This document shows positions 41,086-58,091 of a stretch of 64,000 nucleotides of DNA, piece by piece. Position 1 is the stretch's first letter, and each line of letters opens with the position of its first letter. Made by a program: the position numbers and the translations under genes. The stretch comes from an uncultured Clostridia bacterium (GTDB lineage Bacteria; Bacillota; Clostridia; Christensenellales; UBA1242), in NCBI GenBank assembly GCA_934778215.1, contig CAKVOE010000002.1, forward strand, positions 383,069 to 447,068, read 5' to 3'. Below the pieces are notes generated by a model, which was given only the letters and a program-made list of their open reading frames with translations, was not told the origin of the DNA and ran no database searches.

Positions 41086-41139
41086 AAAATCGCCAAAACC
41101 CTATGAAAATAAATGGTTTTAGCGACTTTTATCAGTGTA

Positions 41140-41208
41140 GCTGGTGACGGTAATCGGACCCGTCCCCCACCTTACCAAGGCAGTGCTTTACCTCTAAGCC
41201 ACATCAGC
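41140..41208 (-). tRNA. tRNA-Thr(GGU)-like gene, atypical (possible pseudogene)
   Basis: Manual fold gives acceptor, D and anticodon arms (loop TTGGTAA). But T-loop is TCCGATT, variable region 3 nt, one acceptor mismatch, no CCA, only 69 nt. Confidence 0.45.
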
Positions 41209-41264
41209 GTAGTTTTTAGCTCCATAAATTTGGAGCCTATGAAAATGTAATTTGGGGAACAAAA

Positions 41265-41494
41265 CGCCTTACCAAGGTGGTGCTCTACCACTGAGCCACA
41301 ATATCATAAACCCTTATTTAGGGCAAATTATTTAGTTGTATTTTGGTTAAAACCGAATCTTACCAAGCAAGTGCTCTACCTACTGAGCTACGTTAGCATA
41401 AGTTGTTGCTCCATAAAATTTGGAAATATTAAGTTGTAAATTTTACCCCCAAATACCTTACCAAGGTGGTGCTCTACCGCTGAGCCACACCAGC
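41265..41494 (-). repeat. Three tandem 5' halves of tRNA-Thr(GGU) with ~50-nt hairpin-containing spacers
   Basis: c41265..41305, c41355..41397, c41454..41494 each run from the tRNA 5' end to just past the anticodon loop. Confidence 0.8.
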
Positions 41495-43068: not shown

Positions 43069-44568
43069 TTATACATATATTCTAACTTCAACTTCTTTAA
43101 AGTTTGGTATTGTTTTATTTTGTATGTATTGTGGCAATTTAGATGTAAATTCTGCAACAAAAAAGCCCTGATTTTTATCAGGACTTGTTTTTATTGGGCT
43201 ATTAAAAGTTATCTCTATTTTATCTTCAAAAACTTTTATTTCTTGAATAAGATAATCAATTAAAAGTTTAGGTTCAAGTTGCAATGCGTGAATGTAATAT
43301 TCTTTAATATCTTCTTTTGAGAGTTTAAGTATAGTTTTAGATTTTTCAATCATTATTTGTCTTTCTAATTCTTCAATTTGATTTTCAAGGTCTTTCATTC
43401 GTTTGTTTGTTGTATTGTTAACAACTCCTTGTTCAACTGCCTTCATTATATTGTTTAATGTGCTTTCGGCTTGTTTTTTATCCTTTAATAATAAATTTAA
43501 TATTGAATTGCCATTTGATTGAGATTCTTGTACTTTCATTATACCATCTATTATTTTATCCATATATTTTGAAGAAGAAAGTATTTTTATAATGTTATCT
43601 ACAATAAAGTTTTCAAACATTTCTTTTCTTACCATAGATTTTTTGCAACCATTTTTTCGTTTTCTTCCAAGACATTTATAATAGTGTCTCTTGGTGCCAT
43701 TACTCGCTGTTCCACATTCTGCACTAATTGGCATTCCACAATAACCACATTTAAGTTTATGCCTTAATAAATACACAACTTCAGTGCTTCGCTTTCCATA
43801 TTTGTTTAGGTTTATCTTTTGCCTAACATTATCATAAATTTCATTCGGTACTATTGCTGGATACATGTTATTAAAGATTTGTCCGTCAAATCTATAAATT
43901 CCAGAATATTTTTCATTTTTCAAAATGTTGTAAATAGTATTTCTTGCAAAAGGTTTGCCTTTGTTAAAAATTCTTTTTTCGGTCAACAGTAAAATTATAT
44001 CTTTAACATAAGTTCCAATAGAGTATTGTTTGTATATAAATCTTACAACTTCAGCTTGTTCTTCGTTCACTTTTACTTTATGGTTTTCTACATAATATCC
44101 ATAGATAATATTTCCACCAGTAAAATTTCCTTTAAGTCTTGTTTCATTCATCCCACGCTTTACTTTTTGAGCAAGTTCTGCTGAATAATATTCAGCCATT
44201 CCTTCAAGCAAACTTTCAAGTATTATGCCTTCAGGTGTGTCAGGGATATTTTCCATTGCAGAGAGTAGTTTTACGTCATTGTCTTTCAGTATCTTTTTGT
44301 TTTTAGCAGTTTCATATTTGTTCCTACTAAATCTGTCTAGTTTGTAAACAATAACATACTGCCATTCTTTATTTGCAGAATCTTTTATCATTTGTTGAAA
44401 ATCTGGTCTATTATCGTTTGTTCCTGTCATAGCTCTATCTATGTATGTGTTAAGAATAACAAAATTGTTATTCTTCGCATATTGTTCACATACTCTTAAT
44501 TGACCTTCTATGCTTTGTTCGGATTGACTATCTGAACTATATCTTGCATATATTACTGCTGTTTTCAC
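43069..44568 (-). CDS. Large serine recombinase
   Basis: AVIYARYSSDSQ catalytic-Ser motif, recombinase domain, zinc ribbon CGYCG...YYKC, C-terminal coiled coil. Start reassigned to GTG 44568 after AAGGAG. Confidence 0.85.
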   Translation of the reverse strand: MKTAVIYARYSSDSQSEQSIEGQLRVCEQYAKNNNFVILNTYIDRAMTGTNDNRPDFQQMIKDSANKEWQYVIVYKLDRFSRNKYETAKNKKILKDNDVKLLSAMENIPDTPEGIILESLLEGMAEYYSAELAQKVKRGMNETRLKGNFTGGNIIYGYYVENHKVKVNEEQAEVVRFIYKQYSIGTYVKDIILLLTEKRIFNKGKPFARNTIYNILKNEKYSGIYRFDGQIFNNMYPAIVPNEIYDNVRQKINLNKYGKRSTEVVYLLRHKLKCGYCGMPISAECGTASNGTKRHYYKCLGRKRKNGCKKSMVRKEMFENFIVDNIIKILSSSKYMDKIIDGIMKVQESQSNGNSILNLLLKDKKQAESTLNNIMKAVEQGVVNNTTNKRMKDLENQIEELERQIMIEKSKTILKLSKEDIKEYYIHALQLEPKLLIDYLIQEIKVFEDKIEITFNSPIKTSPDKNQGFFVAEFTSKLPQYIQNKTIPNFKEVEVRIYV

Positions 44569-44601
44569 TTTATTTTTTCTCCTTTTATTAAGTTTTATTT
44601 T

Positions 44602-44745
44602 TGTCTTTCGACAGAGCGAAAAGAAACGAAAATGGATTAAAATTCTTTTGTTTGTAATTTTTCTTTTCTTGTCAAGGGTTGTGAAACAATACATTTTACC
44701 CTTGACAAGAAAGAGTTTTCGTTTATGCTCTGTAACCGAAAGACA
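44602..44745. repeat. Nested palindrome between Rep stop and recombinase start
   Basis: Outer ~30-nt arms TGTCTTTCGACAGAGCGAAAAGAAACGAAAA / TTTTCGTTTATGCTCTGTAACCGAAAGACA; inner 11-bp CTTGTCAAGGG / CCCTTGACAAG. Confidence 0.75.
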
Positions 44746-44746
44746 A

Positions 44747-45628
44747 TCAATAAGCTTTGGGTAGTTTATCTATAAGAAATTTATCTTTATTCGGTTGTCC
44801 TAAAACTTCGCCAGTTTCAAAATCTAGGCATTTGAAGTCGTCAAAAAGTAAAATTTTTCTATCTTCTTGACCTATTTTGCAAACAACGTCATCATCTAAA
44901 ATATCTGCAACAAAATATGTTTGTAAGTGCTTTGAATAGATAACTTTTTCACCAGTTTTGCGAATGTATTTCATAATGTAATTAACTGCATCATTAACAC
45001 CAACATTATTGATTATTTCTTTGAAATCGTTCCTACCAAATCTCTCTAAAAAGAATGTGTTTTGATGGGCAATTTGCATTTGGTGTGTTTTAGTGGAGTA
45101 ATCTCTTGTTTCAATAATCTCGCCAACCATTTCAGTAATTACAAATATCCCATGAAAATGTAATCTCTCTAGTTTTGGACTTCGTTCAAACACTCCAATA
45201 TATTTCCAGACTTTTCTATGAGATAGATGTCTTAAACAAGTAAGTAATTTCTTTCTAAATTCTTCTTCGTTTAGTTTGTTGCTGTCATAGGTAAAAGTGC
45301 AAAAGTGAGTCCATTGTTGCAGTCCAATTTTTCTATACAATCTCGTAAGTCTAACTATTTTATTTCTCTTTTCTTTTTCTAAAGTTGCTTTAACAAACTC
45401 TTTCGCTTTTTCTTCATCTTTAATTTCTTCATTTATCTTTTCAATAACTTTTTCAGTTTTCTCTTTCTTTGTTCCTGTTTCAGATTTATATAACTGTTTA
45501 AGTTTTTCTTCGGTTTCATTTTTAACTCGCTTTTTGCTATTCTTTCGTTTCTTCCATATTTGTTTTTCAGGTGGTATTCCAATAAAATGACTACCATCAA
45601 AATATACTTTAGTTTTGGGATAGTCCAT
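44747..45628 (-). CDS. HUH-type rolling-circle replication initiator (Rep)
   Basis: Motif 1 HFCTFTYD, HUH motif RLHFHGIFV, Tyr motif AVNYIMKYIRK. Confidence 0.7.
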   Translation of the reverse strand: MDYPKTKVYFDGSHFIGIPPEKQIWKKRKNSKKRVKNETEEKLKQLYKSETGTKKEKTEKVIEKINEEIKDEEKAKEFVKATLEKEKRNKIVRLTRLYRKIGLQQWTHFCTFTYDSNKLNEEEFRKKLLTCLRHLSHRKVWKYIGVFERSPKLERLHFHGIFVITEMVGEIIETRDYSTKTHQMQIAHQNTFFLERFGRNDFKEIINNVGVNDAVNYIMKYIRKTGEKVIYSKHLQTYFVADILDDDVVCKIGQEDRKILLFDDFKCLDFETGEVLGQPNKDKFLIDKLPKAY

Positions 45629-46496: not shown

Positions 46497-46653
46497 TTTA
46501 AATGCCAATTTAGACTAAAATACTAACTTACGCCTTCAAATACAAAGCTTTAAACTTTAGATTTCTAAAGTTTTCTAAAAAAATCAACATAATTATTTAC
46601 ATTCCTAAATTTTTATGATATAATAAAAATATCTATATTTGGAGGGTCATATT

Positions 46654-46869
46654 TTGATTGTGTATTATAAATTTTATGATTATATCAAAAGACGAAAGAT
46701 TAAAATAAAAGATATAATCAATGAAACAGGAATATCCAGTGCAACACTTGCAAATCTTGGAACAAATAAAAGTGTTACAACCGACACAATTGGTAAATTA
46801 TGTAGTTATTTAAAATGCCAACCTAGTGAAATTATGGAATTTGAAGAAAAAGGAGTAGACAATGGGTAA
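46654..46869 (+). CDS. Small HTH protein, candidate R-M controller (C protein)
   Basis: IKDIINETGISSATLANLGTNKSVTTDTIGKLCSYL HTH; TTG 46654 lies 7 nt after GGAGGG; overlaps methylase start. Confidence 0.6.
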   Translation: MIVYYKFYDYIKRRKIKIKDIINETGISSATLANLGTNKSVTTDTIGKLCSYLKCQPSEIMEFEEKGVDNG

Positions 46870-47860
46870 ATTAAATTATATTGATTTATTTGCAGGTGTT
46901 GGGGGGTTAAGTTTAGGGTTTGATAATGCTGGATTCCAAAATTTATTTGCTGTAGAGTATGATAAAGTGTTTGCTGAAAATTATTCTCTTAATTTTAAAA
47001 ATCATAGAATACTATGTAAGGACATTAAAGAAATAGATGAAAGCGAGATTAGGTCAATAATTGGAGATACTAAAGTGGATATAATTATTGGAGGGCCTCC
47101 ATGCCAAGGGTTCTCAATTGCTGGGAACATAGGAAGAAATTTTATTGATGACCCAAGGAACAACTTATTTAAAGAATTTGTTCGTTTTGTAAAAATTATT
47201 CAACCCAAAATGTTTTTATTAGAAAATGTTGCAGCTATGGAAAAGCATAATAAAGGCAAAACATTAGAAATAATAAAAGAAGAATTTAAAAAATTGGGAT
47301 ATGAAATCAAACATAAAGTTTTGAATAGTAAATTTTACAATGTTCCGCAAGAAAGAAGACGAATTGTTCTAGTTGGAGCAAAAGATAAAAATAATTTTGA
47401 GTTTCCAATTGAAAATAATAAATTTATTAGTATAGAAGAAGCTATCGGAGATTTACCTCCCCTAAAAAGTGGAGAGAAAAGTTTAATTCCAAATCATTCA
47501 GCAATGAATCATTCAAAACAAATGCTTGAAAAAATGCAATACGTTAAAGACGGCGGAGATAGAAATGACATTCCATTAGAATTAAGGCCCAAATCTGGAG
47601 ATGCGAGAAAATATATAAGATATAATAGTAAAAAACCTTCTATATGCATAACAGGAGACATGAGAAAAGTTTTTCACTACAATCAAAATAGAGCATTGAC
47701 AAACAGAGAATTGGCACGAATTCAAACATTCCCAGATAACTTTACTTTTGTTGGGAATAATGGTAAAATACAACAGGCAATTGGGAATGCGGTGCCACCA
47801 AATCTTGCATATGAATTAGCACTAAAAATAAAGGAGGCTTTAAATGGCAAATTATCCTAA
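46862..47860 (+). CDS. DNA (cytosine-5)-methyltransferase
   Basis: Motifs DLFAGVGG (I), GGPPCQGFS (IV), ENV (VI), QERRRIVLVG (VIII), GNAVPP (X). Confidence 0.92.
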   Translation: MGKLNYIDLFAGVGGLSLGFDNAGFQNLFAVEYDKVFAENYSLNFKNHRILCKDIKEIDESEIRSIIGDTKVDIIIGGPPCQGFSIAGNIGRNFIDDPRNNLFKEFVRFVKIIQPKMFLLENVAAMEKHNKGKTLEIIKEEFKKLGYEIKHKVLNSKFYNVPQERRRIVLVGAKDKNNFEFPIENNKFISIEEAIGDLPPLKSGEKSLIPNHSAMNHSKQMLEKMQYVKDGGDRNDIPLELRPKSGDARKYIRYNSKKPSICITGDMRKVFHYNQNRALTNRELARIQTFPDNFTFVGNNGKIQQAIGNAVPPNLAYELALKIKEALNGKLS

Positions 47861-48854
47861 AATTAATTATATCGGAAATAAATCAAAACTAGTTGATTGG
47901 ATTATTTCAAATATGCCTATTAAAACTGGAACTGTTGTTGATTTGTTTTCTGGTGGTTCATCTGTGTCTTATGCACTTAAAAAACAACATTTTTCAGTTA
48001 TTTCTAACGATTGCTTATATAGCAATTATATCTTAAGTAAAGCAATAATAGAAAATTCAAAAGATACTCTAAATAAAGATGTTTTTGATATAAAAATTTC
48101 AGACAATGAAATTTCTAAAAAATACAACGAAATATCTAAATACTTAACAAACATTCTTTACTATGATTATGAAGTAGAAGAATTAGCAAAATTAATAATA
48201 ATATCTGAAAAATTAAAGGATTATCAAAAATCATTATTTCTTGCTCTTATCAGAAGATCAATGATTAGAAAACTTCCATATTCAAGAATGAATGTTCCAT
48301 GGAATCAAATACAAAAATTAAGGGATGAAAAATACAGTTATGAAAAATATGGAAGAAAAAGAGCATATCATAATAAATCTTTTGAAAGTTTAATGATTGC
48401 TGATTTAGAAAATTACAATCAAAGTGTTTTTGATAATACTAAGAATAATAAAAGTTATCACATGGATTCGTATGATTTTATTAAAACACTTAAAAACAAT
48501 GTAGACATAATTTATATGGACCCACCTTATCCCAAAACAATGAATAAATATGGTGAGTTTTATGGAATATATGATAAAATTTTTAACAAAGAAATTAATT
48601 ATATAAATCTATCGCAAAATGAAAAGTTTCTTGATAATTTTGTAAAACTTATTAAAGAATGTGTCCCAAAAACAGATTATATAGTCATAAGTTTGAATAA
48701 TAAAACATCTCCATCTATACAAGAAATTGAACAAGCTATTCAAGCATTTGGAGAAACAAAAATTTTTGAAAAAGAGCACCAATATAAAGTAACTAATAAA
48801 ACAAATAAAAATACAACAATAGAGCAATTACTAATATTGAAGACAAAAAAATAA
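47844..48854 (+). CDS. D12-class (Dam-like) N6-adenine DNA methyltransferase
   Basis: NYIGNKSKLVDWI, DLFSGGSSVS (FxGxG) and IIYMDPPY motifs. Confidence 0.8.
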   Translation: MANYPKINYIGNKSKLVDWIISNMPIKTGTVVDLFSGGSSVSYALKKQHFSVISNDCLYSNYILSKAIIENSKDTLNKDVFDIKISDNEISKKYNEISKYLTNILYYDYEVEELAKLIIISEKLKDYQKSLFLALIRRSMIRKLPYSRMNVPWNQIQKLRDEKYSYEKYGRKRAYHNKSFESLMIADLENYNQSVFDNTKNNKSYHMDSYDFIKTLKNNVDIIYMDPPYPKTMNKYGEFYGIYDKIFNKEINYINLSQNEKFLDNFVKLIKECVPKTDYIVISLNNKTSPSIQEIEQAIQAFGETKIFEKEHQYKVTNKTNKNTTIEQLLILKTKK

Positions 48855-48860
48855 GAGTTA

Positions 48861-49943
48861 TTAACTCTTATTTTTTTCATAAAACTTACTATTATGTATT
48901 TTAAGAAATTCTAATCGTTCTGGATTAAGCAACCGGTTATCTATTTTATAATTTTTATATTTGTCTTGAAGTTCTTTTGATACTCTTTTACCCCATATAG
49001 GAATTCCGTTTGTATCAAAAGTTAAATCAAATTTATCAAATAAGATATCTATATTCCTTGAGAATAGAAAACCATTGTTTACATTGTATTGTTCTTCTGG
49101 AGAACTTTCATGGAATGGTTTAATATGGGAAGCAACATAAGATGTATGTTCTATTTGTTCAAAATCACAAACAACCTTTCCAAAAATTGTCTTCGCTTCA
49201 TCTTTTAATGCTTTCTTATATAGAGAATGTAAATAGGGGTCTCTACTTTTTAATTCTTCAGTGTCAGGAAGATTATCTGAATCTAATGATAAAATTCTAT
49301 TTCTGCAAAACACTCCTGTTAACCTTCTAGCTATACCATAAAGATACCTTTTTTGATTATATTTTCTATCATCAAAACCTGTTATTGAAACAAATCTTTT
49401 TTGCGTCTCTAATTCTTCTCTTGTTAAAAACCCCTTTCCAATATTTGATATATCCTTTAAAGAGATTAATGCACACAAATCCTCTTCATTCAATGGACCA
49501 CTATATGCCAATGTTTTTATAAGAAAATTGACTTGCCTTACATTATCAAATTCTGTTATTGCGGAATTAAATTTAGAATTTTCATATACAATTCTTGAAA
49601 ATAAATCTTGTTTTTTCTCTTTATTGGTTTCTTTTATAAATTGTTTAGTTAATTTGTGATATCCTTTTAATTGCGGCTCAATAAAGCCCAATTTTACAAA
49701 TTGATTAAGTGATTTCCGAGTGGAACCCATATCTGCTTTAGGATATACATGATATACTTTTTCCTGTAACCTGCCATATAATTCTTTTGTTAATTCATTT
49801 TCATAAAGTTTATATGTATCAATAAAATCAACCATAATTTGAAGAACGTTATTAAATTGTTCTCCAAATATGTCAGAATATTCCAAAGTTAATTTCCAAT
49901 AATTTTCATACTTTTGATTTTTAACGCTTCTTTTTGTTGCCAT
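48861..49943 (-). CDS. HNH-family putative type II restriction endonuclease
   Basis: Convergent with the methylases; ASHIKPFHESSPEEQYNVNNGFLFSRNIDILFDKFDLTF is an HNH (HNH_2-like) signature. Confidence 0.65.
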   Translation of the reverse strand: MATKRSVKNQKYENYWKLTLEYSDIFGEQFNNVLQIMVDFIDTYKLYENELTKELYGRLQEKVYHVYPKADMGSTRKSLNQFVKLGFIEPQLKGYHKLTKQFIKETNKEKKQDLFSRIVYENSKFNSAITEFDNVRQVNFLIKTLAYSGPLNEEDLCALISLKDISNIGKGFLTREELETQKRFVSITGFDDRKYNQKRYLYGIARRLTGVFCRNRILSLDSDNLPDTEELKSRDPYLHSLYKKALKDEAKTIFGKVVCDFEQIEHTSYVASHIKPFHESSPEEQYNVNNGFLFSRNIDILFDKFDLTFDTNGIPIWGKRVSKELQDKYKNYKIDNRLLNPERLEFLKIHNSKFYEKNKS

Positions 49944-50040
49944 ATTTTAACTCCTTTGAGTATAATTATAGCATATTATTTTACTTTATGTAACTATTTA
50001 GATAGAAAAATTCGTTTTACGTTACAAACTCTCCGCCAGT

Positions 50041-50242
50041 AGTGAACTGTACGTACCCTCGTAAAAATGGGGAATGTGTGCAGTTTTCCTTTTTACATGA
50101 ATGTTTTGGTGTAATTGTTCTCTTTGAAAAACCCAAAGACTCAAAATAAAGTGAATCTTCAAAGTTGTCCAACTTTTGGGGTTCACTTCATTTTTGGGGT
50201 GCACCCCAAAACCCATCTCACTCAAATTGGATAAATTTACAA
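50041..50242 (+). repeat. ~200-bp direct repeat, copy 1
   Basis: About 90% identical by eye to 53397..53597; contains GGGGTGCACCCC palindrome. Confidence 0.85.
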
Positions 50243-50312
50243 GTGGACTTCAAAAATGAAGTCTGGATTGAAATTGGTATCACTGCTAACAAGTTTTTAT
50301 ATGAAAATATAA

Positions 50313-50555
50313 ATGCTTATGACTGATACCAAAACAAAATGTTTTGTTGATTGTAAAGAATTACAAGAGAACACTGCCAAATTTAATTTTGAAGATAATA
50401 CTTTAAAGTTAGGTAAAACAAGTTTGTCAAATCAGCAACTTAAACGAATAAGTTTAATGTTTGCAACCGACTTAAAAAACTTTGCCGAAACCTTTGGCAA
50501 CTCTCAAAATCTTACTGCAAAAGAAGTTTATTCTCACTTGCAAAACAATCAATAA
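50313..50555 (+). CDS. Hypothetical protein (80 aa)
   Basis: ORF only. Confidence 0.35.
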   Translation: MLMTDTKTKCFVDCKELQENTAKFNFEDNTLKLGKTSLSNQQLKRISLMFATDLKNFAETFGNSQNLTAKEVYSHLQNNQ

Positions 50556-50571
50556 AACTAAAAAGAGAGGA

Positions 50572-52503
50572 TTAATCCTCTCTTTTTCTTTGTTTTAAAA
50601 TGTTTAAAAATGTTTTATTTCTATCAGAAGAATCTGAAACTATAGTTCGTAAATCAATAATAAATACATGAGCATTTGCTTTTGGTAAATAACGATAATA
50701 AGCTTTTGTTTGTTCATCAGTTGAAAATAATTGGGTGAAATTTTCAGAGTTTTCAATTGAAAATTCAAAATTTTCATCAATTGTTGTTACAATATAACTC
50801 CATACAGTTTCAACACTTGGTATATTCTTTTTAACAATGGCTATATCATCTGGTAATTCTGATAAAGATTTATTTTTTTCATCTAAATCAGCTTTTGGAC
50901 TTTTAAATTCTACCATTACAAGATTTTTTGAGCCATCTGTTTTATTAAAGAAAATTGACAAATCTGGTCTATGGGAGATTTTAAATTTATTGTTATTCTT
51001 TTCTTCAATCTCATCTTTTATTTGGTTAACAGTTTTATCACTGGCAGCATAAGAATAAGTCATAAATTTATCATCTAACAACCAAATATTACTTAACAAA
51101 TGTTTATTTTCATCTTCTTCGCTTGATGAAGTTTTCATTGGCATAAATATATCATGATAAAATTTTTCATTTTCTACGTTTTCTTCAACCGCAATTTTTA
51201 AGGCTTTTATAATATTTTCTCTGTAAAAAATATATTCGCCTAATTCAGATAAAGCAATTGAACTTAACTCCGATATAGATTTATTATATTCAGTCGAGTC
51301 TATACTTCGATCTGATAGTAATTTTTCAAATTTATTAATAACCTTTTCTTTTTTTACACTGAATTCTTTTTTTGCTTCTTTTAATAGAGAACTTTCTGAT
51401 TTTAATATATCAGTATTTTCTGCAATAATATCAGATAAATAAGGTGCTTTATTAATTGCTTTTTCTTCTTCTTGTTTATTTAATTCGAGCAATTGAGGAT
51501 ATTTATTAAAAATAATTTGATGCATATGCTTTTTCATTTCAAATTTTAAGTCTGAAATTAATAATGGAACATCTATAGTTGCCTGTTTTTTTCCTGTTAA
51601 AGCAGTGAGTTCACTTCGTCCATCATTATCTTTATCGTCAAGATAATCAGAACACAACAACATAATAAAAGAATCATTATTAGGTAATCCCGCAGAAAAA
51701 CCTAATGAGTCATCATCTATCTCTAAAATAGCTCTCCCATTTGCACAAAAATAGACTCTTTTGCTATTTTTAGAATTTTTCTTAAAAATATAATATAAAT
51801 CAAATTTATAATTTTCTTTAGTAATATCTGAATAGATATCAAATTCACAACTTTCCAACGCAGGTATGTTGTCCCAATTTATTACTCTTGTGTTTTCATC
51901 AATCATTATAGTAATGGTAAATTGTTTACCTTGCTGTTTTAATAAAAACAATTTGATAAGTAGATATTCTTTTATACTAGCTAATATTTCATCAATGTCA
52001 GCATTACATCTTAAATCTATTCTTGACCTACTATCACTTACATTGTTATAGTAGGTAGAAGTAACATTTGTAAATTTAATAATAGTAGAGTTTTTATCAA
52101 TGGTCGACTTAACAACTGACATATCCTTTTCTTCAAAATCTAAGCTAAAAGGAATAATGACTTTACATTGCTCATTTTGTACATCGCTTTCAATATCTAT
52201 ATTTTTAAAAACTTTTAACCAAGTAAATCTACCGCTACCTTTACAACCTAAAGTTATTTTGTTTTTTGTCCATAATTCCATAAAGGCATCTCTATTTTTT
52301 GTATCAAAGCCTTCACCATTATCCTTTATTGTAAACCCTATCATTTTAGGTGTAACTTCTTCAAATGTATTATCATGAAGAATTTCTATTTCAATATTAG
52401 TAGCATTAGCTTCTAATGAATTTGTGATGCTTTCATATAAAGGTTGTAAAAACTTTATATTTTTCCCTAAATTATTAACTATATTTGGAATATTTACTTT
52501 CAT
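50572..52503 (-). CDS. GHKL-type ATPase fused to a PD-(D/E)xK (Shedu/DUF4263-like) nuclease domain
   Basis: N-box ESITNSLEA, G1 IKDNGEGFD, G2 GCKGSGRF. C-terminal EKFYHDIF...NIWLLDDKF...HRPDLSIFF...LVMVEFKSP. AAGGAG SD. Confidence 0.6.
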   Translation of the reverse strand: MKVNIPNIVNNLGKNIKFLQPLYESITNSLEANATNIEIEILHDNTFEEVTPKMIGFTIKDNGEGFDTKNRDAFMELWTKNKITLGCKGSGRFTWLKVFKNIDIESDVQNEQCKVIIPFSLDFEEKDMSVVKSTIDKNSTIIKFTNVTSTYYNNVSDSRSRIDLRCNADIDEILASIKEYLLIKLFLLKQQGKQFTITIMIDENTRVINWDNIPALESCEFDIYSDITKENYKFDLYYIFKKNSKNSKRVYFCANGRAILEIDDDSLGFSAGLPNNDSFIMLLCSDYLDDKDNDGRSELTALTGKKQATIDVPLLISDLKFEMKKHMHQIIFNKYPQLLELNKQEEEKAINKAPYLSDIIAENTDILKSESSLLKEAKKEFSVKKEKVINKFEKLLSDRSIDSTEYNKSISELSSIALSELGEYIFYRENIIKALKIAVEENVENEKFYHDIFMPMKTSSSEEDENKHLLSNIWLLDDKFMTYSYAASDKTVNQIKDEIEEKNNNKFKISHRPDLSIFFNKTDGSKNLVMVEFKSPKADLDEKNKSLSELPDDIAIVKKNIPSVETVWSYIVTTIDENFEFSIENSENFTQLFSTDEQTKAYYRYLPKANAHVFIIDLRTIVSDSSDRNKTFLNILKQRKRED

Positions 52504-53042
52504 TATTTTACTCCTTAATAATTTATATTATAACATATAAATTTTCAATTTGTATATAGATTATATAAATATTTTAATCTTAATCCATTTATCTCCGACA
52601 TACACTTTAAAGTTAGAATTGGATAGCATTGGCCCCGCCAAGTGAATAAAAGGGAAGACTTAAAGTCTTTCTTTTTGTTTACAATGAAATTGAACCCTAA
52701 CGGGTTTCTTCACTGAAGGCTTTTATTACACAAAGATATTTTAGCAACCGAAAATGATATTTCTACGCAATTGATTTTACTAACATAAAAACAAAGGAGT
52801 ATGTTTTTATCATTATGAATGCAGTAATGTTACCATTTACCCAAAGCCAATATTATTGTGAGTGTAACGAACAATATCATTAAAATTTGTTTTGAATAAA
52901 ATTGAAATGTGTTATAATATGAAATATGAAAGAAAATTTATTAGCATCTTTTATTAGATATTGCCTCTAAAATTTAAGGTTTTGAAAAGAGGGGTAAAAC
53001 TGCAAACAACAATTAAAAAATTTTTTGACGAAATAGGTGGTT

Positions 53043-53396: not shown

Positions 53397-53597
53397 AGTG
53401 AACTGTACGCGCCGTTGTGAAAATGGGGAATGCGTGCAGTTTTCCTTTTTACATGAATGTTTTGGTGTAATTGTTCTTTTTGAAAAACCAAAGACTCAAA
53501 ATAAAGTGAATCTCCAAAGTTGTCTAACTTTTGGGGTTCTCTTCATTTTTGGGGTACACCCCAAAATTCATCTCGCTTAAATTGGATAAATTTACAA
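53397..53597 (+). repeat. ~200-bp direct repeat, copy 2
   Basis: See 50041..50242. Confidence 0.85.
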
Positions 53598-53886: not shown

Positions 53887-54369
53887 TTATTCTGTTGATA
53901 GTTTCTTTTTTAAATCTTTTTGTCTATCAAGCAACTTCTTATTATCTTTTTTCAAACTTTCAACAGTATTGATCAATTTTTGCTTATTTTCCTTTAATTC
54001 ATTACTTTGTCTGATTGTTATATCTATATTTTTTAATTGTATAGTAATTGAATTGATTTGTTGTTTAATTTCCCCAATTTTATTATTATTTTCTAGAATA
54101 TTTTTATCTAAATTCTCAATCTCTTGTTTAATTTCTGCATTTTTTTCTCTATCTTTAAGAACTAGTTCAGCCAAATTAGGATTGAAAAATTCAAAATGTC
54201 CACACTTAGTACAAATATATGTACTTGCATAAACATCGTTATGTAAAGCATATTGAAAAGATTCTCCCACTAGTCCTACTGCTACAGTATCTAATTCTGC
54301 TTCATAAGGAAAATCAACTTCCTCCAAATCTTCACAACCACATTGTGTGCATTTTATTTTATTATTCAT
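53887..54369 (-). CDS. Zinc-ribbon + coiled-coil protein
   Basis: CTQCGC...CTKCGH then heptad-rich tail; ATG 54369 after GGAGG. Confidence 0.5.
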   Translation of the reverse strand: MNNKIKCTQCGCEDLEEVDFPYEAELDTVAVGLVGESFQYALHNDVYASTYICTKCGHFEFFNPNLAELVLKDREKNAEIKQEIENLDKNILENNNKIGEIKQQINSITIQLKNIDITIRQSNELKENKQKLINTVESLKKDNKKLLDRQKDLKKKLSTE

Positions 54370-54819
54370 AATATAACCTCCATAAATACATACTATAATT
54401 TTATCATAACTATATTTATTTGTCAAATTAGTCCTTGTCTCACTTATTTTCTTGGATTATCCCCCCTTACATTTGCTTTTGTCTGGGTTTTTGTAGCATA
54501 GTTTTCGTATAAATCAACGGAATACAATATTGCTTAAGCGCTTAAAAATATCTAAATAAATATCATAACTAGGTTTTACTGAAGTAAACCTCATTTTTGT
54601 AAATATTCATTAATTATTACAATTTTATTCTTAAAACATCAAAATAAAAATTAAAAATAAAGGATATATCATTTCTGTAATTTAGATTGAATTTTGTAAT
54701 GTTTTGCCAAAAATCAAGAATGCACTACTTATTGAAAATATGAATCGCAAATTTTTTATTTGAAAAAGGTTTTGAAATTTGCTTTAAATAAGTTATACTA
54801 AAAGTAAGGGAGAATCGAA

Positions 54820-55239
54820 ATGGATATTTGGGAAAAATTGTATAATGAAGCAAAGAAAGAGTATCATCCAGAAGAGGTTTCGCCATTTATTGATGCGCAC
54901 CATGTAGTATGTGCAATTGAAGCCGAAAATGGAGAAATTTACACTGGTTTTTGTATTGAAGGAGCGAGTGGAGTTGTTGCTCTTTGTGCAGAAAGAGTTG
55001 CCGGGTTAAATATGTATATTCAAAGCGGACAGACGGTTGTTAAAAGAATGATTGCGTTCAGAAATGAACCGCCAAAAGAGAATGGGGGAATGCCATGTGG
55101 TGCGTGTAGAGAATTTTTCTTACAACTATCAGACAAAAACAAAGATATGGAAATTTTAACAGATTACGAAAGTAGAAGCACGGTAAAATTAATTGATTTA
55201 ATGCCGGGCTGGTGGGGCTGGAAAAGGTATAAAAAATAA
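54820..55239 (+). CDS. Cytidine/blasticidin-S deaminase-family protein
   Basis: CAERVA and PCGACREF zinc-binding motifs, ~139 aa. Confidence 0.7.
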   Translation: MDIWEKLYNEAKKEYHPEEVSPFIDAHHVVCAIEAENGEIYTGFCIEGASGVVALCAERVAGLNMYIQSGQTVVKRMIAFRNEPPKENGGMPCGACREFFLQLSDKNKDMEILTDYESRSTVKLIDLMPGWWGWKRYKK

Positions 55240-55240
55240 A

Positions 55241-55432
55241 ATGTTTATAAGTGTCGTTCTTTTAGTTTTGTGTGGAATTGCTTCAGAAGATGTAAATTTG
55301 GTAAAATCACTTGTTGATAATAAGTGTAAAGATAAAACGCTTTTTGTGACCGAAGGTCTTTGTGCGGTAGAAAAACATATTCAAAAGAATTTTGAGGTTA
55401 CACATTTTTATTATAATCAAGACAATTTGTAA
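55241..55432 (+). pseudogene. Duplicated 5' segment of the downstream TrmH-family methyltransferase gene
   Basis: 55265..55429 is ~93% identical by eye to 55807..55971; encodes only the N-terminal 55 or so residues. Confidence 0.7.
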
Positions 55433-55767: not shown

Positions 55768-56631
55768 ATGGAAAATCAATTGATAGAACAGATAAAAAGC
55801 AAGTCGGTTTTGTGTGGCATTGCTTCGGAAGATGTAAATTTGGTAAAATCACTTGTTGACAATAAGTGTAAAGATAAAACGCTTTTTGTAACCGAAGGTC
55901 TTTGGGCGGTGGAAAAACTTATTCAAAAGAATTTTGAGGTTACACATTTTTATTATAATCAAGACAATTTGCAAAAAGTGAGTCATGAAACATTGGAAAA
56001 AATTGCACAAATGGCAAAGTATGCACAAAAAACTTTGGCAATTTCTGAAAAAGCGTGCAAAAAAATTAGCGACCGAGATGGCTTTGATGAATATTTTGTA
56101 GTGGCAAAACTAAAATCTTATTCGCTAGACGACATAGAAAGGCTAATAGATGGCAAAACCAATGTGATGGCAATAGTTATGGACGGGTTGGAGCAACCGG
56201 GAAATATTGGTGCAATTTTGCGTTCATTTGACTGTGCCGGTGGCGATTTTGCAATAAGCACCAACAAACAAGCACGGCTTTCTAATAGTAGGCTTATAAG
56301 GTCAAGTTTGGGGGCAAGTTTTATGCTTCCTGTGTTAGAAGCAGACATAAACACCGTTCAGCAATGGCTTGTAAAAAACAATTTTAAATGTATTGTAACC
56401 GACCTTCAATCTCAAAAAAGTTATAGGGAGGCCGATTACTCTGGTCGTATTGCAATTATTGCGGGCAACGAGCATACAGGAATATCTGATTCGTGGCGAA
56501 GAGTAAAAAATGCACAGCCAATTATTATTCCTATGCTAGGAACGTGTGAGTCGCTTAATGTTGGGTTTGCTTCAACCTTAGTTGCTTATGAGGCAGGCTT
56601 GCAAAAGTTTGGAAACAAAAAAACAACGTAG
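55768..56631 (+). CDS. SpoU/TrmH-family RNA 2'-O-methyltransferase (TsnR/NHR-like architecture)
   Basis: N-terminal substrate-binding domain, then GLEQPGNIGAILRS, IIAGNEHTGIS, ESLNVGFASTLVAYE motifs. Confidence 0.8.
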   Translation: MENQLIEQIKSKSVLCGIASEDVNLVKSLVDNKCKDKTLFVTEGLWAVEKLIQKNFEVTHFYYNQDNLQKVSHETLEKIAQMAKYAQKTLAISEKACKKISDRDGFDEYFVVAKLKSYSLDDIERLIDGKTNVMAIVMDGLEQPGNIGAILRSFDCAGGDFAISTNKQARLSNSRLIRSSLGASFMLPVLEADINTVQQWLVKNNFKCIVTDLQSQKSYREADYSGRIAIIAGNEHTGISDSWRRVKNAQPIIIPMLGTCESLNVGFASTLVAYEAGLQKFGNKKTT

Positions 56632-57115: not shown

Positions 57116-57290
57116 GTTGCAAAAGAGTAAAACGCCAACAAGAGCAAATGGAAAAAATCCACAAGTGCAAAAGAGTAAAATACCAGCAAGAGCAAAAAGA
57201 GTAAAGTTTCCGCAAGAACAAAAGGATAAACGGCCCACAAGTGCAAAATGGCAAAAGTTTTGCAAGTGCAAAAGAGCAAAGTTGGTATAT
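57116..57290 (+). repeat. About 3.3 imperfect ~50-nt tandem repeats rich in GCAAAAGAGTAAA
   Basis: Units start near 57116, 57166, 57217, 57267; located ~100 nt upstream of the ABC operon. Confidence 0.7.
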
Positions 57291-57389: not shown

Positions 57390-58091
57390 ATGAATGTTTT
57401 GTCTTTAAAAGATGTTAATAAAGATTATAAAACTGGAGAAATAACAGTATCCGCCTTAAAAAATGTTTCTTTTGATTTAAACGAGGGCGAGTTTGTTGTT
57501 ATTCTTGGAGCATCGGGTGCGGGAAAGACTACATTATTAAACCTTTTGGGTGGAATGGATAGTGCAACCAGCGGAGAGATAATTATAGATGGTAAAAATA
57601 TAACAAAGTTTAACAAAAAGCAATTAACAGATTACCGAAGGTACGATGTGGGCTTTGTTTTTCAATTTTACAATTTGATGCCAAACCTAACCGCCCTAGA
57701 AAATGTGGAACTTGCCGTAGAAATATGCGATAACCACCTAGACCCACAAAGTGTTTTAACATCGGTTGGACTTGCAGATAGGCTAAATAATTTTCCTGCC
57801 GAACTTTCGGGAGGGGAACAGCAAAGGGTTTCTATTGCACGGGCAATTGCAAAAAATCCAAAAATGATATTGTGCGATGAACCTACGGGTGCTCTAGATT
57901 ACGCCACGGGTAAAAAGATATTAAAGTTATTGCAAGATTTTTCGAAACAGAATGGAAAACTTGTTGTAGTGGTAACGCATAACACGGCACTAAAGGATAT
58001 GGCAGATAAGGTAATAAAAATAAAAAGCGGGCGAATAGAAAGAGTAGACATAAACAGCAATCCCGTCCCAGTAGAGGAGATTGAATGGTGA
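57390..58091 (+). CDS. ABC transporter ATP-binding protein (MacB/FtsE-like)
   Basis: [28 protein letters not shown]. Confidence 0.9.

Follow-up and report, generated by a model that had tools for sequence, protein, structure and literature searches.

A 643-amino-acid protein encoded at positions 50572 to 52503 (minus strand, 1,932 nt) of a 64,000-nt stretch of DNA from an uncultured Clostridia bacterium (contig CAKVOE010000002.1, positions 383,069 to 447,068; hereafter, the window) joins a known and experimentally validated kind of defense protein rather than founding a new system. Its open reading frame (ORF) couples an N-terminal GHKL ATPase and an S5-like domain, through a helical linker, to a predicted C-terminal PD-(D/E)xK nuclease. 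The original prediction, made from the letters of the window, had described this architecture as unnamed and uncharacterized, which proved wrong, as it had been published as paraMORC3 (PMC2292703), as Shedu type 1D (bioRxiv 10.1101/2023.08.10.552793), and as VcSduA (PMC12137116). We consider it likely that the protein is a stand-alone, single-protein immune nuclease of the paraMORC3/VcSduA kind, its gene being carried within a 2.4-kb cassette, on an island that has a serine recombinase and also holds a restriction-modification (R-M) system.

The domain layout was derived from the ORF, its homologs, and an AlphaFold2 model that was built with 41 homologs in the alignment and reached a mean predicted local distance difference test (pLDDT) score of 85. 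All of the ATPase motifs quoted in the original prediction are in place, comprising the N-box in YESITNSLEA (E24 and N28), the G1 motif in DNGEGF at residues 61 to 66 (D61xG63xG65), and the G2 motif in GCKGSGRF at residues 86 to 93 (G86xxG89xG91-R92); motif IV is represented by T140. Pfam HATPase_c_3 matched residues 22 to 135 above its gathering score (E = 4.7e-10), and this match, with the invariant motif residues, delimits a GHKL (Bergerat) ATPase domain at residues ~1 to 160 (52024 to 52503, minus strand). When the full model was compared with the PDB using Foldseek, the matches were GHKL-plus-transducer modules over 310 to 460 aligned columns (E values of 3e-10 to 2e-8), among them Hsp90, GyrB43 (3zkd), SMCHD1 (6mw7), MORC2 (9cdj), MORC4, MLH1 (4p7a), and PMS1. 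On the strength of these matches, residues ~1 to 300 are read as a Bergerat ATPase followed by an S5-like transducer; the latter, or middle domain, spans residues ~165 to 300 (51604 to 52011, minus strand) and aligned to GyrB43, the MLH1 N-terminal domain, MORC2/4, and SMCHD1 with target TM scores of 0.35 to 0.52. Neither the single protein nor the family profile retrieved anything meaningful when the sequences of the PDB were searched, and scans against NCBIfam and PHROGs yielded noise only. Judged by its motif residues, the ATP-binding and hydrolysis site is predicted to be intact, and motifs, Pfam, and Foldseek agree on the complete N-terminal Bergerat ATPase that had been proposed. The long helical middle of the original prediction was likewise recovered in the AlphaFold2 model at residues 316 to 441 (51181 to 51558, minus strand), where DSSP delineated five helices, the last of them 39 residues long.

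Homologs are numerous. A word-indexed search matched 271 proteins (E ≤ 0.001); of the 120 that were listed, nearly all were full length (630 to 670 aa). Because there are hundreds of homologs, and the listed ones are nearly all full length, the 643-aa ORF is not a product of chance. When 1.84 billion cluster representatives were searched exhaustively with a profile, there were 762 matches at E ≤ 1e-30, 1907 at E ≤ 1e-10, and 2602 at E ≤ 1e-3; at the last threshold, the family amounts to 2602 clusters at 50% identity, almost all of 600 to 670 aa. Conservation was computed over 74 homologs drawn from many phyla, including Bacillota, Bacteroidota, Pseudomonadota, Campylobacterota, Elusimicrobiota, and Cyanobacteriota. 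Fourteen positions were invariant in all 74 (E24, N28, D61, G63, G89, G91, R92, W474, D477, D478, K479, D514, E532, and K534), and G65, T140, E446, H450, N472, and P513 were conserved in at least 90%.

The C-terminal PD-(D/E)xK nuclease domain was placed at residues ~442 to 640 (50584 to 51180, minus strand) from conserved columns, the order of strands and helices, and weak matches. It contains EKFYHDIF at residues 446 to 453 (E446 and H450), NIWLLDDKF at residues 472 to 480, and HRPDLSIFFNKTDGSKNLVMVEFKSP at residues 511 to 536, which carries P513, D514, E532, and K534. A separate model of the C-terminal 200 residues reached a pLDDT of 89. In order, the domain consists of a helix bearing E446 and H450, two short strands with short helices between them, a strand at residues 515 to 520 that follows P513-D514, a strand at residues 526 to 533 ending in E532-x-K534, a long helix at residues 540 to 560, and a strand at residues 564 to 573. 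As modeled, this alpha-beta-beta-beta-alpha-beta order is the canonical PD-(D/E)xK arrangement. Weak Foldseek lists were dominated by PD-(D/E)xK enzymes (Can2, EcoO109I, XisH, McrC, EndoMS, TnsA, L endonucleases of bunyaviruses and arenaviruses, Mrr, and RecE-like proteins), and a weak VRR_NUC match was obtained with the isolated nuclease domain (E = 0.05) and with 1 of the 74 members (3.8e-4). The D...E-x-K nuclease core recognized in the original prediction is therefore upheld by the invariance of D514, E532, and K534, by the canonical topology, and by the enrichment of PD-(D/E)xK nucleases among the weak matches. Between the first strands of this core sits an invariant, family-specific insert, N472-x-W-L-L-D-D-K479...S488, which may be regulatory or may supply an additional metal ligand.

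This architecture has been described in three publications. Iyer, Abhiman, and Aravind described paraMORC3 in 2008 as a GHKL-plus-S5 protein with a conserved C-terminal restriction endonuclease (RE)-fold domain bearing E-D-ExK motifs, sporadically distributed and either R-M linked or stand-alone, and they suggested that the stand-alone forms might act independently of R-M (PMC2292703). Gu et al. placed Shedu homologs with an N-terminal GHKL domain (HATPase_c_3) and an Hsp90/MORC-like middle domain among type 1D (bioRxiv 10.1101/2023.08.10.552793). Adams et al. (2025) reported that VcSduA of Vibrio cholerae, an N-terminal GHKL ATPase with a C-terminal PD-(D/E)xK nuclease, defends Escherichia coli from Drexlerviridae and V. 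cholerae from phage X29, that protection is lost with the E27A and K557A substitutions, and that cultures are protected at all tested multiplicities of infection (MOIs), from which the authors infer direct, non-abortive immunity; the protein is predicted to form an entwined dimer with a clamp-like cavity (PMC12137116). The one-gene, ATP-gated immune nuclease that had been proposed for the window thus agrees with experiments on a protein of the same architecture (PMC12137116).

A tblastn search of plasmids yielded a 672-aa "ATP-binding protein" encoded by a plasmid of Vibrio fluvialis (here P0121), of which variants 91 to 96% identical occur in V. cholerae and many Gammaproteobacteria. It aligns end to end with the 643-aa protein (BLASTP, 22% identity, E = 2e-26) and with the family profile (hhalign, E = 2.4e-46). 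In the hhalign alignment, its N-box glutamate is residue 27 and its ExK lysine is residue 557, the same numbers that were mutated in VcSduA. This pair of numbers was found in none of the 74 other members, of which five have a glutamate at 27 and none a lysine at 557. Because the numbering is shared with VcSduA and absent from the others, VcSduA probably belongs to the P0121 branch of the family. The V. cholerae copies of the 672-aa protein cannot be called VcSduA itself, since the copy that could be placed maps to a type I R-M island beside mnmE and not to VSP-II.

VcSduA (V. cholerae WASA, VSP-II; "Shedu type I-D") and the 643-aa gene are alike in being single genes that join a GHKL ATPase, a clamp-like middle, and a PD-(D/E)xK domain, and both lie in a defense island. 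They differ in that the 643-aa protein is only 22% identical to the Vibrio branch and shorter (643 versus 672 aa), and is known from sequence in a low-GC uncultured host; moreover, the DUF4263 label of VcSduA was not reproduced with Pfam for the family or for P0121. By its published description, paraMORC3 also matches the family in the succession of GHKL-plus-S5 and an RE fold with E-D-ExK, in a wide and sporadic occurrence, and in being stand-alone or R-M linked. It was, however, reported mainly from Proteobacteria and Bacteroidetes (PMC2292703), whereas the closest relatives of the 643-aa protein, like the protein itself, come from Bacillota-like gut metagenome-assembled genomes.

Kinship with canonical Shedu is a separate matter. 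SduA resembles the family in being a single-protein PD-(D/E)xK immune nuclease with a regulatory N-terminal region, and its motif order (N-x-[WF]-[LI]-L, [FY]-x-Y, D, E-[IL]-K-x-P) is collinear with that of the family in a weak hhalign alignment. PF14082 (SduA_C) matched none of the 74 members at E ≤ 0.01, and a scan of 10 proteins, among them P0121 and the C-terminal domain on its own, gave no match to it at E ≤ 10; the PADLOC SduA model matched 1 of the 74 (E = 0.003). Aligned by hhalign with 30 genuine SduA sequences, the whole-protein family profile scored E = 0.1; the nuclease domains alone gave P = 0.011 and were collinear over 91 to 156 columns, a score that 1 of 120 column shuffles reached. 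No Shedu structure was present among the 50 listed Foldseek PDB matches of the C-terminal model. The alignment is suggestive of a remote kinship between the family and DUF4263 and does not separate DUF4263 from a generic PD-(D/E)xK fold. The resemblance of the nuclease surroundings to the DUF4263 of Shedu, as originally put forward, did not reach significance with PF14082 or in the whole-protein and domain alignments. In one V. fluvialis operon, an SduA_C protein (E = 1.3e-25) stands adjacent to the GHKL-nuclease; therefore, the two are distinct proteins.

The distribution of the family is sporadic and laterally mobile. When one genome per species was scanned (185,579 species), ~250 species had a relative; they fall in more than 8 phyla and include Bacillota, Bacteroidota, Alpha-, Gamma-, and Deltaproteobacteria, Campylobacterota, Elusimicrobiota, Melainabacteria-like Cyanobacteriota, Lentisphaerota, Nitrospirota, and others; homologs were also found on 53 plasmids and one phage. 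Phage vB_RanS_PJN03 (ON245412.1, 40034 to 41992) carries a full-length GHKL-nuclease homolog (96% coverage, 23% identity) in a region annotated as an N-acetylmuramoyl-L-alanine amidase, probably a mis-annotation or an overlapping feature.

Genomic context was assessed by all-against-all clustering of the neighbors in 79 loci. No partner gene was conserved across these loci, and the most recurrent neighbor families were all R-M or mobility genes: HsdM (13 loci), HsdS (12), HsdR (12), D12 methyltransferase (MTase) (7), Resolvase (6), and IS1595 (4). Type I R-M genes lay within 7 kb in 15 of the 79 loci, with M, S, and R all present in 10 of those 15; in 7 loci the gene sat between hsdM/hsdS and hsdR in the same orientation, and in 3 more it stood at the edge of a type I R-M operon. 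Approximately one in five of the 132 immediate neighbors was an R-M protein (HsdS, 9; Eco57I/N6_Mtase, 6; HsdR, 4; D12, 3; MmeI, 2; MutH-like, 2; and others), and resolvases, IS1595, and HipA were also found in these positions. R-M genes usually make up less than 1% of a genome, and a share of about one in five is far above that. The Vibrio copies of the GHKL-nuclease gene close type I R-M operons or stand one place before the end, as in the order hsdM-hsdS-SduA(DUF4263)-[GHKL-nuclease] on V. fluvialis plasmid pIDH5335-1 (L080, 1 to 5956) and hsdR-AAA_21-hsdM-hsdS-[GHKL-nuclease]-RhuM in V. cholerae (L090, 1072 to 11071), the latter within an island that adjoins mnmE and also holds MobI and an integrase. 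The defense-island context that had been anticipated is thus seen across the homologs, among whose neighbors R-M and mobile-element genes recur. A putative anti-phage function of the 643-aa protein is supported by this context and, by analogy, by the published VcSduA experiments.

Within the window, the gene forms part of a mobile cassette at 50231 to 52640 (minus strand), consisting of the GHKL-nuclease gene and an 80-aa ORF. By blastn, this segment was 97% identical to its counterparts in related islands L086 and L089, the flanks of which differ, and nothing else of the window was common to these islands. Because 50231 to 52640 alone is shared while the flanks differ, the GHKL-nuclease gene is taken to travel as a 2.4-kb cassette, which encodes no methyltransferase. 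The 80-aa ORF (50313 to 50555) is convergent with the gene and conserved only in cassettes more than 90% identical; it was considered as a partner or antitoxin and rejected, being absent beside a 90%-identical homolog (L085) and all distant ones. Both copies of the ~200-bp direct repeat that had been noted as bounding the segment were confirmed, with copy A (202 nt) at 50041 to 50242 and copy B, 92% identical to it over 202 nt, at 53397 to 53597, bracketing the gene. Copy A contains the perfect 20-nt palindrome TTTTGGGGTGCACCCCAAAA at 50192 to 50211, with an equivalent position in copy B. The repeats, considered as the boundary of a mobile cassette or as an RNA element, had no Rfam family match and were not present in the related islands. 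Since the cassette boundary (50231) matches the right end of copy A (50242), they are probably a local footprint of cassette insertion or duplication.

The gene appears to be monocistronic, because it is preceded by a promoter-like site and ends in a strong terminator, while the neighboring restriction endonuclease (REase) gene has a promoter-like site to itself. The site of the GHKL-nuclease gene (TATACA-18-TG-TATAAT; 52527 to 52556, minus strand) lies 24 nt 5' of the start codon and is a consensus match only, the number of promoter-like sites in the region being no higher than expected from shuffled sequence; the site of the REase gene is at 49965 to 49994. The terminator is a bidirectional intrinsic hairpin with a 12-bp stem at 50560 to 50587 that overlaps the stop codon.

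The neighboring type II R-M system (46639 to 49943) is transcribed separately and comprises an HTH_26 helix-turn-helix controller (46639 to 46869), a C5 (cytosine) MTase (46862 to 47860, plus strand), a D12-family N6A (adenine) MTase (47844 to 48854, plus strand), and an HNH REase (48861 to 49943, minus strand; PADLOC REase_II, E = 3.9e-74). All four genes of the complete system expected at about 630 bp were found, the gap to the GHKL-nuclease gene being 628 bp. The accompanying claim that the gene is convergent with the REase gene was mistaken: both lie on the minus strand in tandem, the GHKL-nuclease upstream, and it is with the two MTase genes that the REase gene converges. A large serine recombinase (541 aa) and a Rep-like protein (293 aa), identified with Pfam at 43069 to 45628 (minus strand), also belong to the island, and the low-GC stretch (0.23 to 0.30 at 42 to 55 kb versus 0.33 to 0.35 in the flanks) begins with these two genes.

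Islands L086 to L088 have the same order of recombinase, controller, R-M, and GHKL-nuclease. In other assemblies, the islands that encode a protein of the same 90%-identity cluster carry as cargo a serine recombinase, HTH_26, a D12 MTase, PycTM, a DpnII REase, an N6_N4 MTase, and a reverse transcriptase, after which the GHKL-nuclease gene follows, so that the organization is similar and the cargo different. L086 to L088 indicate a family of integrative elements with swappable defense cargo. Observed alongside the 97%-identical cassette in L086 to L088 were a 498-aa reverse transcriptase (RVT_1), a DpnII-type R-M system with two MTases, a PycTM protein, a serine recombinase, and, near the cassette, a TraG/VirD4 coupling protein.

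As a working model, the N-terminal GHKL-plus-S5 region would bind ATP and dimerize, by analogy with GyrB, MutL, and MORC. Dimerization would close a clamp, built together with the helical middle, around DNA, and ATP binding and hydrolysis would license (or reset) cutting by the two PD-(D/E)xK domains through E446, D514, E532, and K534. The substrate would presumably be invading phage or plasmid DNA, and the outcome would be direct, non-abortive immunity.

Several points weigh against the reading of the protein as a stand-alone immune nuclease. The isolated C-terminal model had no significant Foldseek match (best E = 0.026 in the PDB and 0.002 in BFVD), so that the nuclease assignment rests on motifs and topology. 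The probable link to VcSduA is drawn from residue numbering in a Vibrio homolog, and the proposed dimerization and clamp gating are taken from GyrB, MutL, MORC, and the dimer prediction for VcSduA. PADLOC v2 models did not recognize the 643-aa protein. Finally, in 64 of the 79 loci, type I R-M genes are absent from the vicinity of the gene, and the context is often uninformative.

Proximity to R-M genes also allows the protein to be seen as an accessory subunit that is not autonomous, one that loops DNA, processes R-M ends, or serves as a PrrC-like back-up when the type I enzyme is inhibited. Such a role would fit the same-strand nesting between hsdM/hsdS and hsdR in 7 loci and the edge positions in 3, the operon arrangements of the Vibrio copies, and the location of the gene 628 bp upstream of the REase gene. 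It also has published antecedents, as Iyer et al. proposed the looping of DNA between recognition and cleavage sites (PMC2292703), and the nuclease PrrC is kept silent by the type I R-M enzyme to which it is linked (PMC1484252, PMC2610378). Against it, the gene has its own promoter-like site and strong terminator, the REase has a separate promoter-like site, no partner is conserved across the 79 loci, and VcSduA protects alone in E. coli (PMC12137116). The 97%-identical cassette adjoins an R-M system of another type (DpnII) in L086, whereas the nearest MTases are several kilobases away from the 90%-identical homolog in L085, which points to the absence of a fixed partner. We regard an accessory role as unlikely.

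It is similarly doubtful that the family forms an independent, non-Shedu lineage of R-M-coupled second-line nucleases occupying the niche of PrrC between hsdS and hsdR. PrrC and RloC are likewise NTPase-regulated nucleases next to or inside type I R-M loci (PMC1484252, PMC2610378), and members of the family occupy the same niche between hsdS and hsdR, but PrrC and RloC pair an NTPase of the ABC type with an RNase that cuts tRNA anticodons, in place of GHKL and PD-(D/E)xK, and no sign that an R-M enzyme silences the family came up here. Were this lineage real, the protein would load on DNA ends made by R-M enzymes, or be freed once the type I complex has been disabled by an anti-restriction protein of a phage, and the cassette would plug into whichever R-M system its island carries.

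An abortive-infection or addiction toxin, a triggered nuclease that degrades host and phage DNA and thereby kills the cell or stabilizes the island, seems to us distinctly improbable. Carriage on mobile islands with recombinases and insertion sequence elements would suit such a toxin, as would a cassette that has neither a modification partner nor an obvious self/non-self mark and the occurrence of HipA toxins among the neighbors, and another Shedu, PD-T4-8, has been proposed to be abortive (Gu et al., bioRxiv 10.1101/2023.08.10.552793). However, the protection of VcSduA cultures at every MOI tested (PMC12137116) speaks against it, and there is no antitoxin-like conserved neighbor, the 80-aa ORF being confined to near-identical cassettes. 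The weakest alternative, a housekeeping DNA-repair or topology factor akin to MutL or a topoisomerase with a nuclease of its own, draws on the GHKL-plus-S5 module common to MutL, GyrB, and MORC and on the suggestion that stand-alone paraMORC3 might have R-M-independent functions (PMC2292703), but was rejected as highly improbable on distribution and genomic context, given the sporadic presence in ~250 of 185,579 species genomes from unrelated phyla, the residence on low-GC islands, plasmids, and one phage, the movement as a cassette, and neighbors that are R-M and mobile elements and not repair genes. MutL, GyrB/Topo VI-B, and MORC/SMCHD1, the best structural matches, do share with the 643-aa protein an ATP-operated, dimerizing GHKL-plus-transducer module coupled to DNA cleavage or clamping; they are housekeeping or chromatin enzymes whose nuclease partner has another fold (the MutL C-terminal domain or Toprim) or is missing, whereas the 643-aa protein has a PD-(D/E)xK domain fused in cis.

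Other features of the window were recorded around the island. Between the GHKL cassette and the island edge, a 179-aa ORF (53887 to 54426, minus strand) has a Cys-rich, zinc-ribbon-like N terminus and a coiled-coil C terminus, and its matches, to SMC/LmuB/ZorA models, are of a weak coiled-coil kind only. The 139-aa ORF at 54820 to 55239 bears a CAE...PCGAC zinc motif, as is typical of small deaminases that act on cytidine or blasticidin S; its counterpart in L082 had no precomputed Pfam match, the ORF itself not having been scanned. A 168-nt direct repeat (55265 to 55432 and 55807 to 55974, 95% identical) duplicates the 5' part of a SpoU-type RNA methyltransferase gene (55768 to 56631); its upstream copy reads as a 63-aa ORF (55241 to 55432) and may be an integration or recombination remnant at the right edge of the island. 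Four imperfect ~40-nt direct repeats, spaced by 25 to 48 nt, lie at 57118 to 57256, just 5' of an ABC-transporter ATPase gene (57390 to 58091). Beside tRNA-Thr (41139 to 41208) are two degenerate tRNA-like copies, the first at 41240 to 41305 (Rfam tRNA, 26.6 bits, below the gathering score of 29) and the other, listed as the third copy and 40 nt long, at 41455 to 41494; the copies at 41139 to 41494 could be leftover attachment (att)-site duplications near the island.

For the locus at 50572 to 52503, the outcome is mainly a gain in annotation and not a new principle. For the family, it means that a validated yet barely studied one-gene defense type, a GHKL ATPase joined to a PD-(D/E)xK nuclease, is widespread, with ~2600 clusters at 50% identity and many members in uncultured gut Bacillota, and that current annotation overlooks it, as Pfam detects the ATPase part only and PADLOC v2 none of it. 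As a compact model, the family could serve to study an ATP-driven GHKL clamp that would gate a nuclease. Together, its frequent nesting in type I R-M operons and the swapping of its cassette between serine-recombinase islands raise a testable question, namely whether R-M systems and a second-line nuclease cooperate.

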